Source of the DNA: Candidatus Enterousia sp.
GTDB lineage: Bacteria > Pseudomonadota > Alphaproteobacteria > Rs-D84
Length of the DNA stretch: 64,000 bases
NCBI GenBank assembly: GCA_045546075.1
Contig: JAZQCF010000008.1
Coordinates: forward strand, 17,137-81,136
Direction of reading: 5' to 3'
The translations under genes and the position numbers were made by a program. The notes below the pieces were generated by a model. The model worked only from the letters and a program-made list of their open reading frames with translations. It made no database searches and was not told the DNA's origin. Below are positions 8,186-53,624 of this stretch, in pieces (the stretch's first letter is position 1; the number at the start of each line of letters is the position of its first letter).

Positions 8186-9430
8186 ATGAAACATTTATTC
8201 AAAATACTTGGACCAATTTGTGCATGTGTTGTCGGTGCATCTGCGTATGGGGTATCGGCGGGAACGGTTGCGAATAATGCCGCCCGTGGCATTATAAATC
8301 CAACTGTGGCGATTGGCACGGCGGGAACGCTGCGCGGGAACCAGGGATTGGCCAACGCATATAAACAAAATATGCGTAATACGTATTATATGGTAAATGT
8401 TCCCGACGTGGACAGTGCGTGCCGCACCAAAATCGATAAATGTTTAACCGATTATTGTGGTGATATAACCGTTGTCCCGGGCCAGGTTTCTGGTCGTTGT
8501 GCATACGCCACGGAAAGTGAATTATATAATTATGTCTTGTTGTGTCTGCGTAATGATACATCAATGTTGTTGCCGAACTATGCGGCGGGAACCAAGATGG
8601 GTGTGGGTGGCGTGAATACGGCGGCACACCTGTGTCCATCCTATGTCCAACAAGAATTAATGGCGTGGCTTTCTATGTCAAATATGGCGAACGAATTAAC
8701 CAAGGCACATTCGCCCCAGTGCCTGCAACGTCGCCAGGAATTAGAGGCCGCATTATCGTGTCACGCGGTTGCGTTGGCATATGGTAACGAAACATCCAGT
8801 ATGTTAATGTCGCAATTAACTGATTTTTGTGGCGCGGGCGTTCCGGGTGGTTCGGCCGAAATGGTTTCGCGTTTTGCGAACGCCGGAAACGTCGGGGCAA
8901 ATATTTGGGGCTGGGCGGAAAAGATTGTTAGCCTGGATATGAACAAAAAGGCGGCTGATTGGGAAACGGCGGTTGATGCGGTATTGGCATCATATACGAA
9001 TCGTATGAATTTGGCGTGTGGTGAAGATATGCAATTAAATTTGCCGGCGCGTGACAGTTCGAATAATAATTCTGGCCTGCAAACGGCGGCGGCGATTGCG
9101 GCAACTGTGGCATTCCCGGATACACAAAAAAAAACTAACAACGATGCCGTAAAGTCGGGAATGTTTTTGGAAATAAAATCCCGCCAAGAAATCTATGATT
9201 ATCCAACCGCAAATACCGTGGTCCAGGCGGGATTAACAAATTCTGTCCTGACACAAAATGCGTTCTTTACCCCATCCCAAATGGATGATATGCAAAACGC
9301 GTACAAGGCGGGGACAAATGTATTCATCTTGCGCGACAGCACGCGTTGCTTTATTGTTCCGGTTGCGGAAATGACGGCGGCGGAAAAATCTATGGTTGCG
9401 CAACAATTCGGCACATGTATTTATAAGTAG
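8186..9430 (+). CDS. Secreted cysteine-rich hypothetical protein (414 aa)
   Basis: GAGAGG RBS, signal-like MKHLFKILGPICACVVGASAYG, many Cys; no family recognised. Confidence 0.55.
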   Translation: MKHLFKILGPICACVVGASAYGVSAGTVANNAARGIINPTVAIGTAGTLRGNQGLANAYKQNMRNTYYMVNVPDVDSACRTKIDKCLTDYCGDITVVPGQVSGRCAYATESELYNYVLLCLRNDTSMLLPNYAAGTKMGVGGVNTAAHLCPSYVQQELMAWLSMSNMANELTKAHSPQCLQRRQELEAALSCHAVALAYGNETSSMLMSQLTDFCGAGVPGGSAEMVSRFANAGNVGANIWGWAEKIVSLDMNKKAADWETAVDAVLASYTNRMNLACGEDMQLNLPARDSSNNNSGLQTAAAIAATVAFPDTQKKTNNDAVKSGMFLEIKSRQEIYDYPTANTVVQAGLTNSVLTQNAFFTPSQMDDMQNAYKAGTNVFILRDSTRCFIVPVAEMTAAEKSMVAQQFGTCIYK

Positions 9431-9475
9431 TGGGAATCAATTATTTATGTTCGCGCGCCTGCGCGCACCAATTCC

Positions 9476-9542
9476 CTGCGGGGCAAGTCTCGCCTTTGGC
9501 TCGACTGGGTACCGCCCTTCGGCGGTATGACGGGTATCTGGA
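9476..9542. repeat. Left inverted repeat of GIY-YIG cassette
   Basis: Its reverse complement is TCCAGATACCCGTCATACCGCCGAAGGGCGGTACCCAG..., with an internal hairpin TACCGCC-GAAG-GGCGGTA. Confidence 0.8.
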
Positions 9543-9572
9543 AATTTTCTATTTTTTTCAAACCATCTGGAA

Positions 9573-9896
9573 TTATTCTTCAAATGGGGCAAATCCGTAT
9601 TCGGCCAAGATACCGTTATATAAATCGTACCAATTTGGATTTTTTTCTATTATCAATCGAATTTTCCAATTACGGTGCCATTCTTTTAATTGACGTTCGC
9701 GTGCGACCATATTTTCCAGGCTGTCATACCATTCCACATATACTAATTTATCAAGATTGTGTCTTGCGGTAAAACTTTTTGGATAAATTTTCTTTTTATG
9801 TTCATACACACGTTGAATTATATTTGACGTGGAACCGATATACAATGTTCCATTTCTTTTATTCGTCATAATATAAACGCAACCACCATCTTTCAT
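9573..9896 (-). CDS. GIY-YIG nuclease superfamily protein (UPF0213/YhbQ-like, 107 aa)
   Basis: VYIMTNKRNGTLYIGSTSNIIQRVYEHK (GIY...YIG), then RERQLKEW. Confidence 0.8.
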   Translation of the reverse strand: MKDGGCVYIMTNKRNGTLYIGSTSNIIQRVYEHKKKIYPKSFTARHNLDKLVYVEWYDSLENMVARERQLKEWHRNWKIRLIIEKNPNWYDLYNGILAEYGFAPFEE

Positions 9897-9947
9897 AAAG
9901 CGAATACTAAGATAAATAAAACAAATTTCAATAAGTAAAAATATTGT

Positions 9948-10015
9948 TCCAGATACCCGTCATCCCGGCGAAGGCCGGGACCCAGGCCGAGCGATAGCGA
10001 GGACTTGCGTCGCAG
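9948..10015. repeat. Right inverted repeat of GIY-YIG cassette
   Basis: TCCAGATACCCGTCATCCCGGCGAAGGCCGGGACCCAG..., with a compensated hairpin TCCCGGC-GAAG-GCCGGGA. A partial extra copy CGTCATCCCG lies at 10028-10037. Confidence 0.8.
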
Positions 10016-10047
10016 ACATTCATATTTCGTCATCCCGAATTTTTTTG

Positions 10048-10146: not shown

Positions 10147-10971
10147 ATGAGAATCAAATCCTCGATAATGATTGGTGTGCTGGTGTCGGTTATGACATTA
10201 TGCGCGGCATTCGCGGACAGCGTTGTTACATCCAAATCATATGTTGATGCGCAAGACGCATTAAAGCAAGATAAAATCACCGCCGGGACCAGGGGCAGTG
10301 TTGTTACATATGCAGGCGAGGTTGGTGGTTATGCGCAATTTGGTGAGATGCGGGTTAATGATAGTTCTTTTGAGTTAGGTTCAAGTGTTAACGAGCTGGC
10401 TACGACTGGTCTATTGGTACCTCCGTATCAGCTTTTAGAAGATATAAGTGTAATCAATTCTAATGAAGTTCTCGTGCGTGCTGTACATGCTGGTGGGTCT
10501 TATGTTGAAGGTTTGGCGATTTTTTCGTCGGACGGGACATATAACGCCGGTACAGATGCCGATAAATTGGCAACAATGGGCGCGGTAATGGCCAGTATGG
10601 CGGCATCCGGATCGCAACCGGCATTATCCGGAACCAATGGTGCAATCGTCACATATGGTAATGCCCCCGGCGTGACGGGTGAGCGTAAGATTTTGTCAGA
10701 ATGGTATCAACCATTCGTTCCAGGCGTAACCGCAGGCAATGGCGATCATCTTGTTGATGCACAAAGTGTGATGGGTGTTGTATACACCATTGGAAATCGA
10801 CCCATCAGCGTGATGGAATGTGCGGATGGTGAAAATGTATCGGATGAGGACTGTATGTTGTGGCATATTTCACAAAGACACGTCTTATCATGGCCATCAA
10901 ATGCTGGTTATCAACGCTCTCCGTTTATCAATAGTAGTGAATTCCCATCATATGAACCGTATAATCCATAA
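10147..10971 (+). CDS. Secreted YVD/CLLW-family protein, paralog F1 (274 aa)
   Basis: Signal peptide ending AFA, then TSKSYVDAQDALKQDKITAG..VVTY, TMGAV, and C-terminal CMLW. Confidence 0.7.
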   Translation: MRIKSSIMIGVLVSVMTLCAAFADSVVTSKSYVDAQDALKQDKITAGTRGSVVTYAGEVGGYAQFGEMRVNDSSFELGSSVNELATTGLLVPPYQLLEDISVINSNEVLVRAVHAGGSYVEGLAIFSSDGTYNAGTDADKLATMGAVMASMAASGSQPALSGTNGAIVTYGNAPGVTGERKILSEWYQPFVPGVTAGNGDHLVDAQSVMGVVYTIGNRPISVMECADGENVSDEDCMLWHISQRHVLSWPSNAGYQRSPFINSSEFPSYEPYNP

Positions 10972-20861: not shown

Positions 20862-20869
20862 CAAAAATC

Positions 20870-20896
20870 AAACGCCCATTTGGGCGTTTTGTTTTT
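20870..20896 (+). terminator. Intrinsic terminator after tRNA-Ser
   Basis: AAACGCCCA-TTT-GGGCGTTT followed by TGTTTTT. Confidence 0.7.
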
Positions 20897-21004
20897 GTGT
20901 TGTCGATTCCGGGATTCGAACCCGGGGTTAAGGGTTCGAACCGCAGCCGAAAGGCAGACGAGAGTCGGCCGGTGAGCAAAGCGAATGAGGCAAGGTGGCG
21001 AAGC

Positions 21005-25103: not shown

Positions 25104-25272
25104 TCCAGATAATTGTCATCCCGCGGCATCGGGCCCCGCAAAATTTGAAAAAAATTTTGTGGGTGGTCTAACGCGGGATCTCGTCAGTATCGTCGTGAAT
25201 CAAAGAGATCCCGGCCTGAATCACCCACAAAATGCGTTCGCATTTTTCGGGGCCCGATGCCGCCGGGATGAC
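25104..25272. repeat. MITE-like nested palindrome (four-way-junction architecture) sharing its terminus with the GIY-YIG cassette
   Basis: It starts TCCAGATAATTGTCATCCCG (compare TCCAGATACCCGTCATCCCG at 9948). The 24/25-nt outer arms 25115-25138 and 25248-25272 enclose three internal hairpins. Confidence 0.75.
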
Positions 25273-25284
25273 GGCCTGTTTTTG

Positions 25285-51467: not shown

Positions 51468-51487
51468 AACTAACACTAACCACTAAT
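51468..51487 (-). repeat. Stop-rich heptamer repeat copy (orphan)
   Basis: Minus strand TTAGTGGTTAGTGTTAGTT, the same 18-nt core as at 53602. Confidence 0.7.
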
Positions 51488-51493
51488 TTTCTC

Positions 51494-51525
51494 TTGACCC
51501 CGAATCGTGTTTTTTGTTAGAATGT
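51494..51525 (+). promoter_or_regulatory. Promoter of leader copy 3 / F4-F5
   Basis: TTGACC, 18-nt spacer, TAGAAT. Confidence 0.6.
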
Positions 51526-51531
51526 ATTTGA

Positions 51532-51730
51532 ACCAATGGGAAGCCATTCTCGGTTCGGGCTGTCGTAGGCCCACATCTTGGACGGCACACAATTTTTTTG
51601 GGTGTGCCAAATACCCCGCCTGTCGGGGTGCCGATGGTTATAATGCGCTGTCAAAAGGCCTATCGGGATCAACTTCCAAGATGTGATTTACGAACACCCC
51701 GACCGTCTGTTTTCCACGACGGTTTATTTA
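51532..51730 (+). promoter_or_regulatory. Structured 5' leader copy 3 (candidate riboswitch/attenuator) with terminator 51702-51730
   Basis: Homologous to copies 1 and 2, with compensated hairpins 51584-51608 and 51614-51628. GTCGGGGTG:CACCCCGAC is an alternative helix. The terminator is ACCGTC...GACGGT-TTATTT. Confidence 0.6.
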
Positions 51731-51774
51731 TACACAAAACAATCCCTGTGAGGGGGAAAGGAGAAAAACAAGCG

Positions 51775-52329
51775 ATGAAAAATTCCAAAATTCTATTATT
51801 TGGCGCGGTGGTGTCGGTATTGACATCGGGCGCATTTGCCGCAACAACAACCCAAACCGTCACGACCCGGGGTTATGTTGATACCGCGGTTGCGACCAAA
51901 CAGAATAAATTATCCGGCACGTCCGGTTATGCCGTCACATACGGCGCAAGCGCGGGTACAACGGATGAACGGCAAATCGTAACATCACTTGGGTCGGACA
52001 CGACGGCGACGACATTGCCGACAACGGGCGCGGTGGTTGCGGGCCTGAACGCTAAACAAAATACATTAAACGGCGCGGCAAACAGTGTTATTACATATAC
52101 CGGCACGGCGGGCGGCACCGGTTCCAAGGGTGTGTACCAGGCATCAGGTTCGTATTCATCCCAAACAAACAATTTGGCCGAGGCCGGACATGTAAACACG
52201 GCGGTTGCGAACGCGTTTAATGCACATTTAACATGCAATACATACGCAACGCCGGGTGATAGCAGCAGTGATTGTTTGCTCTGGAATGTGAACAATTTGT
52301 CGGGCACATATATGCCAGAGAATCAATAA
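51775..52329 (+). CDS. Secreted YVD/CLLW-family protein, paralog F4 (184 aa)
   Basis: GGAG RBS, signal ending AFA, TTRGYVDTAVATKQNKL, AVTYG, TTGAV, LTC...DCLLW. Confidence 0.7.
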   Translation: MKNSKILLFGAVVSVLTSGAFAATTTQTVTTRGYVDTAVATKQNKLSGTSGYAVTYGASAGTTDERQIVTSLGSDTTATTLPTTGAVVAGLNAKQNTLNGAANSVITYTGTAGGTGSKGVYQASGSYSSQTNNLAEAGHVNTAVANAFNAHLTCNTYATPGDSSSDCLLWNVNNLSGTYMPENQ

Positions 52330-52425
52330 CCGTCATACCGATGTAAATCGGTATCTTGTCGGTTCAAGATGCAGATAGGGTATCAGGCGGTTGCAAAGAG
52401 ATCCCGTGTCAAGCACGGGATGACG
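52330..52425. repeat. MITE-like palindromic element between F4 and F5
   Basis: CCGTCATACCGAT-GTAA-ATCGGTATC ... GATCCCGTG-TCAAG-CACGGGATGACG. The termini match the GTCAT(A/C)CCG arms of the GIY-YIG cassette, and it starts at the first nt after the F4 stop. Confidence 0.7.
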
Positions 52426-52442
52426 AAAAAAGGACAGAGAAT

Positions 52443-53459
52443 ATGAAACTATCAAAATACGGTTTTAATGTTGCATTGGCTTTATTATTGGTGCCAGGAA
52501 TTATAGGTTCTGCATTTGCTGACACGGGCACAATAACCAGTCGTGAATATGTTGATGATTTGTTGGATACCAAACAGGCGCAAATTCCTGCATTAAACAC
52601 GAACACAATTGTTACATATGGCACAAGCGATGGAGTGATTGGTCAACAAACGATAGTAACCGCGCTGGGGACGGACGCAACGGCGACAACATCCCCAACC
52701 GCTGGCGCAGTGAATACCGGATTAAGTGCAAAACAAAATATAGCGAACGGTACGGCGAACTATGTTATGACCGGCACCGGCACCGCCGGCACACTCGGCG
52801 AAAAACCGGTCTACAGCGCGACAACAAACTACACAAATGCCTTGGTGACGGCACAAACAATCAACACCGCCGCCATGGACGCCGCCAACAGTGAACTGAC
52901 CTGTATCGATAACGATTGCCTGCTGTGGCAGATTCGCACCACAACCCCATCCGGCCTATCCATACGAATAGATTTTAATCCAGACACAAGTATTAGCGGG
53001 ACATCTGTTTGTTGGCGTAATTTATCTAATGAAGGAAACTATGCAAATTACGATGGTACATGCAGCGCATCAACATTATCATATATTGGGGCCAGTGGAA
53101 GCAAAAGTGGCAAATGGGGGACAGTATTTTCGTATGGAGACGTTAGCGGGATAAGTGTGTGTAGTTCAACAACAAAAAATTCGGTGGGGACAATAGTTGC
53201 CACGGATGCACAGGCAGCGGTATTAGACAGTGAGTATCTTGCACAAACGGGTATCGGACTCGGTGATACGGAATTAAATACAAATTACCATTGTTGGTGT
53301 AAAATGGAAAATCCCGGAACTTCAAAATGGATTTATGTACGGACTTTGAACTATGGTGGTACCAGATGTTCCGATATATGTGTAAATGATTGCGCGCGCG
53401 ATGTACGGGACAATAGTAGTGGCAATTTTAGGACAACCATGTATGGCACGATAAATTAA
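52443..53459 (+). CDS. Secreted YVD/CLLW-family protein, paralog F5 (338 aa) with extra Cys-rich C-terminal domain
   Basis: Signal ending AFA, TSREYVDDLLDTKQAQI, IVTYG, TAGAV, LTC..DCLLW, then ~170 additional aa. Confidence 0.7.
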   Translation: MKLSKYGFNVALALLLVPGIIGSAFADTGTITSREYVDDLLDTKQAQIPALNTNTIVTYGTSDGVIGQQTIVTALGTDATATTSPTAGAVNTGLSAKQNIANGTANYVMTGTGTAGTLGEKPVYSATTNYTNALVTAQTINTAAMDAANSELTCIDNDCLLWQIRTTTPSGLSIRIDFNPDTSISGTSVCWRNLSNEGNYANYDGTCSASTLSYIGASGSKSGKWGTVFSYGDVSGISVCSSTTKNSVGTIVATDAQAAVLDSEYLAQTGIGLGDTELNTNYHCWCKMENPGTSKWIYVRTLNYGGTRCSDICVNDCARDVRDNSSGNFRTTMYGTIN

Positions 53460-53505
53460 CGGATAATTGTTCAAAATAATATGTTTTAATACTATATAAT
53501 TTGGT

Positions 53506-53531
53506 ACCCCGGCATTGTCCGGGGTGTTTTT
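53506..53531 (+). terminator. Terminator of F4-F5 unit
   Basis: ACCCCGG-CATTGT-CCGGGGT followed by GTTTTT. Confidence 0.75.
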
Positions 53532-53570
53532 ATGCAACAATTGCCGTGAATACTGCGCCGTGGTTACATT

Positions 53571-53597
53571 AAAAAGGTTGCCAAACGCAACCTTTTT
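53571..53597. terminator. Terminator of gdh (bidirectional shape)
   Basis: AAAAAGGTTGC-CAAAC-GCAACCTTTTT. Confidence 0.75.
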
Positions 53598-53601
53598 AAA
53601 T

Positions 53602-53624
53602 ACTAACACTAACCACTAACTAAC
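53602..53624 (-). repeat. Stop-rich heptamer repeat overlapping the gdh stop codon
   Basis: Minus strand TGT TAG TTAGTGGTTAGTGTTAGT. Confidence 0.75.

Follow-up and report, generated by a model that had tools for sequence, protein, structure and literature searches.

The stretch of 64,000 nucleotides from Candidatus Enterousia sp. that was analyzed here (contig JAZQCF010000008.1; hereinafter, the window) contains, at positions 9453-10037, an inserted block in which a small gene for a GIY-YIG nuclease lies between two inverted repeat arms. Comparison of the encoded protein and of the arms with known families makes it highly probable that the gene product is a nuclease of the Ssn family and that the arms are copies of its cognate Ssn-related motif (SRM), a repetitive extragenic palindrome (REP) with a CGTC tag. 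The locus is a further example of the Ssn/SRM pairing that was first described in 2025, not a new kind of transposon, and it extends this pairing to uncultured gut alphaproteobacteria. The features of Ssn/SRM systems and of CGTC-1 REPs that we checked, namely the domain, the characteristic residues, the SRM on both sides of the gene and the flanks of the homologs, were all found.

Ssn proteins are GIY-YIG proteins of about 94 amino acids (aa) that consist of this single domain only (Chenal et al., 2025, Nat Commun 16:2388, PMC11893778). According to that report, SsnA of Neisseria meningitidis is a site-specific nuclease of single-stranded DNA (ssDNA) that binds the NTS hairpin repeat (CGTCATTCCCGCGMAVGCGGGAATCYRG) only as ssDNA and cuts a few nucleotides upstream of it, and its activity is abolished by a change of the stem sequence. 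The Ssn/SRM pairing was characterized in Neisseria and Wolbachia, the demonstrated biology being the restriction of transforming ssDNA in Neisseria; across bacteria, 71% of the Ssn homologs have one SRM or more beside them and 42% have SRMs on both sides (PMC11893778). The authors remark on the insertion sequence (IS)-like look of the NTS-ssnA-NTS arrangement, although Ssn is not known to act as a transposase, and in the discussion they raise the idea of a propagation similar to that of RAYT/REPIN systems. Thus, the arrangement that the initial annotation of the window had regarded as unprecedented, a GIY-YIG gene flanked by repeats, had already been described; our search of the later literature found nothing on Ssn after that paper. 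CGTC-1 REPs, in turn, have a CGTC head and a CCA tail, with an 8-bp stem that opens with AT and a loop of 4 nt; they occur mostly in Alphaproteobacteria and were reported with no associated transposase (Di Nocera, 2013, PMC3733652).

The nuclease gene and its flanking repeats

The only credible open reading frame (ORF) between the arms, at 9573-9896 on the minus strand, encodes a protein of 107 aa, as the initial annotation had it, and is denoted here ssn. Residues 5-79 of this protein match the Pfam GIY-YIG domain (PF01541, E = 7.7e-17), the sole other match being to the related T5orf172 family. Of the catalytic residues, Y19, R29, H33 and E67 do not vary in the alignment of 27 homologs, and Y8 occurs in at least 90% of the sequences; in the family members of 94-95 aa, the spacing of Y8, Y19 and E67 falls at Y6, Y17 and E64, the residues that were mutated in N. 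meningitidis SsnA. The AlphaFold2 model comprises one compact GIY-YIG domain (pLDDT 95.7), for which the best neighbors by fold in the PDB are the UPF0213 protein BH0048 (E = 8.8e-4, 25% identity), Slx1 and the N-terminal domain of UvrC; a sequence search of the PDB yielded no relative (best E = 0.36, to unrelated glycoside hydrolases). With NCBIfam, PADLOC and PHROGs, only weak, sub-threshold similarity to GIY-YIG or homing endonucleases was detected, and therefore the locus does not represent a catalogued defense system or phage family. The closest genome match for the nuclease comes from a Candidatus Enterousia metagenome-assembled genome (84% identity).

The arms were correctly recognized at the outset as an inverted repeat (9476-9543 and 9947-10015). 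This repeat consists of an inner segment of 39 nt with 90% complementarity (9505-9543 and 9947-9985) and an outer segment of 28 nt with 71% complementarity (9476-9503 and 9988-10015), the lower value being due to the fact that the left arm is of the B type and the right arm of the A type (see below). Each arm contains one 7-bp hairpin with a GAAG loop, TACCGCC-GAAG-GGCGGTA and TCCCGGC-GAAG-GCCGGGA, and the stems, as had been proposed, differ between the arms and pair perfectly in both when folded. The left arm (9476-9543, minus strand, tail CTTGCCCCGCAG) and the right arm (9947-10018, plus strand, tail CTTGCGTCGCAGACA) were delineated by the inverted repeat, the SRM match, the fold and nhmmer (E = 3e-14 and 4e-21, respectively). 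The order of elements is the same in both, that is, TTCCAGATACC, CGTCAT (9532-9527 on the left and 9958-9963 on the right), hairpin 1 (9527-9510 and 9963-9980), ACCCAG, hairpin 2 and the tail. The 16-mer TCCAGATACCCGTCAT, which had been assigned to the outer ends of the arms, in fact forms their gene-proximal ends (9527-9542 and 9948-9963), with the heads facing the gene and the tails pointing outward. The window contains two exact copies of this 16-mer and one with three mismatches at 25104, three matches compared to 0.27 expected. The geometry assumed for the arms is accordingly reversed: the TCCAGATA...CGTCAT ends face the gene at this locus and face outward in the gene-less elements.

The published SRM pattern, HGTCWYN(0-2)YYVSBRHN(0-5)WNVSBRGN(0-2)RNCYNB, which translates into CGTCAT, stem, loop, stem and AYCCAG, matches both arms (9505-9532 on the minus strand and 9958-9985 on the plus strand) and the right end of a gene-less element at 52331, that is, three times in the window compared to 0.11 matches expected from dinucleotide shuffles. 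Read as CGTC-AT-CCCGGC-GAAG-GCCGGG-A(C/T)-CCAG, the arms also fit the description of CGTC-1 REPs. Among the homolog loci from GTDB genomes (n = 82), an SRM is found within 500 bp of the gene in 49 and on both sides in 20, across phyla, which resembles the published family property of 71% and 42%.

Close homologs of the protein (68-84% identity) occur in at least five contexts besides that of the window, and all of those inspected are flanked by SRM-type repeats; related loci are denoted here by labels starting with L. One context is the space between a CopG-like gene and tolB (L001, L005, L117, L123 and L124); in another (L002), VTT-domain, rbfA and lepA genes lie downstream, whereas upstream there are ABC-transporter and DUF218 genes; the remaining ones are the space between rpoA and rpsK (L125), the vicinity of ABC-transporter and DUF218 genes (L126 and L127) and the vicinity of a repeat protein gene (L120). 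The homologs with 79-84% identity, all in the CopG-TolB context, have the same arm family as the window, and their DNA homology to it stops at the arms. In L001 (79%) and L005 (84%), where an arm-gene-arm unit lies between the CopG-like gene and tolB, the DNA similarity to the window is limited to 9469-10020. The notion that the gene and the arms belong together is supported by these loci.

Several observations weigh against the assignment to the Ssn/SRM pairing or restrict its scope. The window contains only two arms of the exact family and thus gives no sign of a high copy number in this genome. In most of the distant homologs, the heads of the SRMs point outward (15 of those 20 loci in which both sides have an SRM), whereas they point inward here. 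At least three stem variants coexist in these elements, though a change of the stem abolishes the activity of SsnA, which makes it less certain that one enzyme serves all of them.

Repeated DNA extends beyond the arms as they were initially delimited: on the left, it includes 9446-9475, which is homologous to the central hairpin of doublets found elsewhere, and on the right 10028-10037. At the left end of the block, 9453-9475 (GCGCGC-CT-GCGCGC hairpin and spacer) is a remnant of a doublet center that matches the doublet center of L120; over the doublet center and the arm together, 9446-9532 is 84% identical to L120 6419-6506. At the right end, junction alignments identify 10028-10037 (plus strand) as a truncated head, CGTCATCCCG, that belongs to a further arm in tandem and that the initial annotation had listed as a solo copy; similar tail-to-head spacing is found in the tandem arrays of L106 and L115. 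The stretch 9536-9564 is a 29-nt local duplication, seen as a direct repeat with a second TTCCAGAT; the alignment shows that L130 and L132 lack it in their orthologous copies. A weak promoter-like site, TTGAAA-16-TAGTAT, is located at 9904-9931 on the minus strand between the head of the right arm and the ssn start codon; in the consensus scan, promoter-like sites were in no excess over shuffles, and the promoter/terminator scan identified no terminator-like site in the region. A search of Rfam, at gathering scores and at E up to 1, returned nothing in or near the arms.

Both genes adjacent to ssn (8186-9430 and 10147-10971) encode proteins with signal-peptide-like N-termini, as judged by eye, neither of which matches Pfam; for the first of these, which is 414 aa long, there are over 900 relatives (E up to 1e-20), the greater part of them in uncultured Alphaproteobacteria.

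A dispersed modular repeat in relatives and in the window

Outside the window, the arm turned out to be a dispersed repeat of gut alphaproteobacteria of the Candidatus Enterousia-like lineage. A search pattern composed of the head, hairpin 1, AYCCAG, 12-26 nt and YTGCGTCGCAG was matched in 38 metagenome loci, 36 of which lack ssn in the DNA retrieved, and at least eight exact arm matches are found on a single contig of 293 kb. Gene-less relatives of the arms, postulated in the initial annotation as non-autonomous derivatives, are thus abundant in related genomes. Dispersed arms were thus found in these relatives; in the window, a search with nhmmer using a profile of 63 arms identified no other member of the exact arm family in the 64 kb, a search for the 16-mer of the tail found no further copies of the exact arm, and ATTCCAGAKA was not enriched.

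The repeat is a composite unit of about 70 nt. It extends from TTCCAGA-N5-GTCAT through a hairpin of 7 bp, the loop of which is of the GAAG type, AYCCAG and a second hairpin, which varies, to the tail CTTGC(GT/CC)CGCAG. The lead before GTCAT, AAAATTCCAGAG-N4, is optional, and the second hairpin is composed of interchangeable cassettes. The tails are of two types, CTTGCGTCGCAG (A) and CTTGCCCCGCAG (B). The most common organization is a doublet in which an A arm and a B arm are joined tail-to-tail around a central GC-rich hairpin, with the heads outward; in each doublet, one of the heads has the conserved TTCCAGA-N5 lead. In many copies, the arms of the doublet are 98 nt apart from start to start, and tandem arrays exist as well. 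Across four variants of the stem, hairpin 1 has all seven Watson-Crick pairs in 61 of the 63 unique arms. This complete pairing was not built in by the search, given that its pattern placed no constraint on four of the seven pairs, including the positions that vary. The types of hairpin 1, hairpin 2 and tail occur in 36 combinations among the 63 arms.

Besides the arms at the nuclease locus, the 64 kb of the window include two doublets that carry no gene and belong to related subfamilies, both with outward heads and with CGTCAT(C/A)CCG at the ends. The first, at 25104-25273, is a palindromic doublet recognized by its fold, the arm type of which also flanks ssn in L125; here TCCAGATAATTGTCATCCCG opens a palindrome of 160 nt (DNA fold of -56.5 kcal/mol, z = -9), in accord with the terminus reported there initially, and TTCCAGATA is present on one side only. 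The second, at 52331-52425, consists of two CGTCAT hairpins (fold z = -5.2), the right one of which matches the SRM pattern, so that hairpin termini of the form CGTCAT(A/C)CCG do bound this element as originally noted.

A number of additional features were observed in the course of this comparison. The second hairpin of the arms (9986-10004 and 9488-9504 in the window, and copies in L085-L122) is represented by interchangeable cassettes of similar shape, several of which combine a stem that includes a tandem G.A/A.G mismatch with GNNA-like loops. Arrays of GTTAGTG/CACTAAC-like heptamers are located beside repeat clusters in L005 (3820-3860), L102 (3985-4020) and L002 (6500-6545), and downstream of ssn in L126 and L127. 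L120 229-5925 and L101 1-2578 share 95% identity as far as a doublet arm's head, beyond which the DNA of the two contigs is differently oriented, as would be expected if an inversion or rearrangement had taken place between two doublets. In L101 and L105, about 2.1 kb of the window (51487-53618) is missing, the flanks being only 42 nt apart there; this segment contains ORFs at 51598-52329 and 52356-53459, with the SRM doublet of 52331-52425 between them. Compared to L104, the window has about 143 extra nucleotides at 20862-21004, directly after tRNA-Ser(gga) and with duplicated or rearranged pieces around; this could be a small insertion at the 3' end of the tRNA gene. The segment 1533-1874 is a permuted two-piece tmRNA gene of the alphaproteobacterial type, ordinary for the class, and places the window in Alphaproteobacteria.

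Occupied and empty alleles and the spread of the repeats

The history of the block was addressed through loci that encode an ortholog of the 414-aa protein (87-90% identity), the gene for which lies upstream of ssn in the window, in the conserved gene order prfB, 414-aa gene, next gene, amidase. At this site, L129, L133 and L134 have neither the nuclease gene nor the arms; instead, their spacers of 141-154 nt contain only a terminator hairpin (AACGGTTGC...GCAACCGTT) with a T-run. L130 and L132 contain the gene and the arms at the same junctions as the window, and the alignment of these five syntenic loci defines the whole block. Because two kinds of empty allele share the orthologous hairpin, the block appears to have been inserted here, not deleted from the others. 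The scenario of an ancestral gene with repeats inserted independently on each side was rejected given the empty alleles that lack both the gene and the repeats.

The block of 585 bp (9453-10037) replaces about 26 nt, which correspond to the terminator hairpin of the relatives, with the T-run kept. Its left end lies inside the hairpin of a doublet center, after a shared ATGTT, and its right end within the truncated head's stem, ahead of the T-run, with CCG/AA microhomology. The block is asymmetric, with half a doublet on the left and an arm plus a truncated head on the right, and both ends are located beyond those of the inverted repeat. A simple target-site duplication at the window site was ruled out by reading the junctions of the occupied and empty alleles, none being found there. 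Thus, the insertion does not look like cut-and-paste of a unit defined by terminal inverted repeats (TIRs).

Further pairs of alleles were found elsewhere. At the CopG-TolB site, L102 retains the arms, with 26 nt between the heads and no gene, whereas L124 has the gene at this position. L093 has a doublet that L122 lacks, the insertion being flanked by a direct repeat of 17-21 nt, TTTTTTATTCCAGATAG, and including extra, non-repeat DNA. An element of the 25104 type, like that of the window, is found in L001 (3197-3379), L102 and L114, the same site being empty in L005 (1271-1277). A comparison of L104 with the window as another potential pair of occupied and empty doublet sites was discarded as uninformative because the flanks diverge. 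Between the right arm of the window and its ortholog in L130, two pairs of the stem have been swapped in a compensated manner, which suggests sequence exchange among copies of the repeat. In L120 and L124, complete doublets are located on the flanks of the gene; the heads of the arms face the gene because it lies between doublets.

By analogy with SsnA, the Ssn protein of the window would bind hairpin 1 in ssDNA and would nick the motif-forward strand a few nucleotides 5' of CGTCAT, in the TTCCAGATACC stretch. With the heads facing the gene, two nicks are predicted on opposite strands, just inside the arms. GIY-YIG nucleases hydrolyze DNA without a covalent intermediate and have no strand transfer activity of their own; therefore, any mobilization would need host repair or replication functions. 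Judging by the junctions, the gene and the adjacent repeats probably arrived through a recombination-type event at hairpins with microhomology. As for the role of the nicking, we lean toward a combination of repeat propagation, in analogy to RAYT/REPIN, and restriction of incoming ssDNA.

Of the scenarios for the spread of these repeats that depart from the plain Ssn/SRM assignment, the one that fares best is a close analogue of the REPIN-RAYT relationship, in which Ssn is a single-copy nuclease retained by the host that mobilizes CGTC doublets, the doublets are the actual mobile units and the gene is merely embedded among them. This scenario accounts for the conserved doublet architecture, the compensated stems and the shuffling of modules (36 combinations among 63 arms), for the polymorphism of the doublet between L093 and L122 and that of the 25104-type element, and for the report of CGTC REPs without an associated transposase (PMC3733652); the same hypothesis was raised in the discussion of Chenal et al. 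(PMC11893778). However, there is no mechanistic precedent for transposition of hairpin repeats driven by a GIY-YIG enzyme, the L093 footprint is unclean, given the 17-21-nt direct repeat and the non-repeat DNA, ssn changes contexts more often than a vertically inherited RAYT would, and the restriction of transforming ssDNA is the only demonstrated biology (PMC11893778). We consider this scenario plausible, though on balance not probable. An extended and more tentative version holds that Ssn is the missing enzyme that propagates CGTC-type REP doublets and that its nicking also drives hops of the cassette into hairpin sites such as terminators; under this possible but rather doubtful scenario, the differences between the window and L129/L133, between L093 and L122, and between L124 and L102 would be natural footprints of Ssn-driven spread.

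The initial annotation had interpreted the locus as an autonomous transposon, with the 67-nt arms as TIRs, the GIY-YIG protein as the transposase and the elements at 25104 and 52330 as miniature inverted-repeat transposable elements (MITEs). The joint occurrence of the arms and the gene in different contexts, the presence or absence of the block at the window locus, the existence of gene-less relatives of the arms and the IS-like look remarked upon by Chenal et al. (PMC11893778) are all compatible with such a unit. The interpretation nevertheless fails where the ends are concerned: the alleles place them at 9453 and 10037, neither of which coincides with an end of the inverted repeat, and the content between them is asymmetric, with no target-site duplication. 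Furthermore, the heads face the gene, opposite to their orientation in the gene-less elements, L102 retains the arms without the gene, the gene lies between complete doublets in L120 and L124, and the enzyme, as pointed out above, could not accomplish strand transfer alone. An autonomous transposon is therefore an unlikely explanation.

Homing by a selfish nuclease appears even less likely. In this case, the enzyme would nick gene-less head-to-head pairs of SRMs, and repair from a gene-bearing copy would install the gene. This would explain why the gene is always located precisely between a pair of heads, at the positions of the predicted cuts, and why L124 and L102, at one and the same site, differ precisely by a gene between two heads that L124 has and L102 lacks, and it agrees with the weak similarity to GIY-YIG homing endonucleases in PHROGs and NCBIfam. 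However, the SRMs are intact in the gene-bearing alleles, leaving the site unprotected from cutting, the empty allele at the window locus contains no SRM pair, only a terminator hairpin, and the enzyme family is described as cutting ssDNA only (PMC11893778). That the arms are ordinary terminator or regulatory hairpins with a coincidental position next to the gene, as might be supposed from the replacement of a terminator hairpin with retention of the T-run and from the frequent location of REP-like elements downstream of genes (PMC3733652), is barely conceivable, given that the association recurs in every close homolog examined and in 49 of the 82 homolog loci across phyla, and that no terminator-like site was scored in the region.

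Under the preferred assignment to the Ssn/SRM pairing, the occupied and empty alleles bear on the questions of what spreads CGTC-type REPs and whether Ssn is a domesticated nuclease of a mobile element, for which they supply concrete substrates and junctions. Different pairs of Ssn proteins and motifs are, moreover, of interest in practice for cutting ssDNA at specific sites.

Comparison with known systems

The homing endonucleases of the I-TevI type and the GIY-YIG proteins of Penelope-like elements share with the present locus a GIY-YIG catalytic domain that is tied to DNA mobility; they differ in possessing additional DNA-binding or reverse transcriptase domains and in cutting double-stranded DNA, whereas the window encodes the bare domain. 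The elements of the IS200/IS605 group are likewise small, with subterminal hairpins recognized as ssDNA, and the asymmetric conserved motif 5' of one hairpin is reminiscent of their target/cleavage tetranucleotide; in contrast, there is no HUH transposase at this locus, the predicted cuts are on opposite strands and the hairpins do not define the ends of the block. The block does not resemble a TIR-bounded insertion sequence either, in that its ends do not coincide with TIRs and it lacks a target-site duplication.

The similarity to REPIN-RAYT systems (Nunvar et al., 2010, PMC2817692; Bertels and Rainey, 2011, PMC3116915) is more extensive and includes inverted hairpin doublets with a spacer, a nuclease gene flanked by the repeats and the recognition, predicted for the present locus, of hairpins in ssDNA. 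The difference is that those systems combine an HUH-Y1 transposase with a GTAG head, neither of which is found at this locus, whereas here a GIY-YIG hydrolase is combined with a CGTC head and mobilization is hypothetical. CGTC-1 REPs, including dRS3/NIME of Neisseria and RPE-6 of Rickettsia (PMC3733652), have in common with the arms the head, the stem starting with AT, the loop and the CCA(G) tail, as well as the predominance in Alphaproteobacteria and the occurrence as dimers and clusters. They were described without an enzyme gene, whereas a GIY-YIG gene is associated with the repeat here and in Chenal et al. (2025), and the hairpin 2 and tail modules of the present repeat are outside the description in PMC3733652.

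The closest match is the Ssn system itself, with which the locus shares a GIY-YIG-only protein of about 100 aa, a CGTCAT-stem-loop-stem-AYCCAG repeat that flanks the gene on both sides and, in relatives of the window, is dispersed in the genome, and an animal-associated alphaproteobacterial host. What differs is the composite of about 70 nt, with its TTCCAGA-N5 extension on the 5' side, second modular hairpin and conserved tail, and the orientation of the heads, which face a gene set between doublets here and point outward in most homologs. The accessible sections of the 2025 description hold no counterpart of the 70-nt two-hairpin repeat, the REPIN-like doublets, the TTCCAGA-N5 lead on one head of the doublet, the heads-inward placement between doublets or the natural occupied and empty alleles. 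The composite, the lead, the inward placement and the alleles are variations within a known kind.

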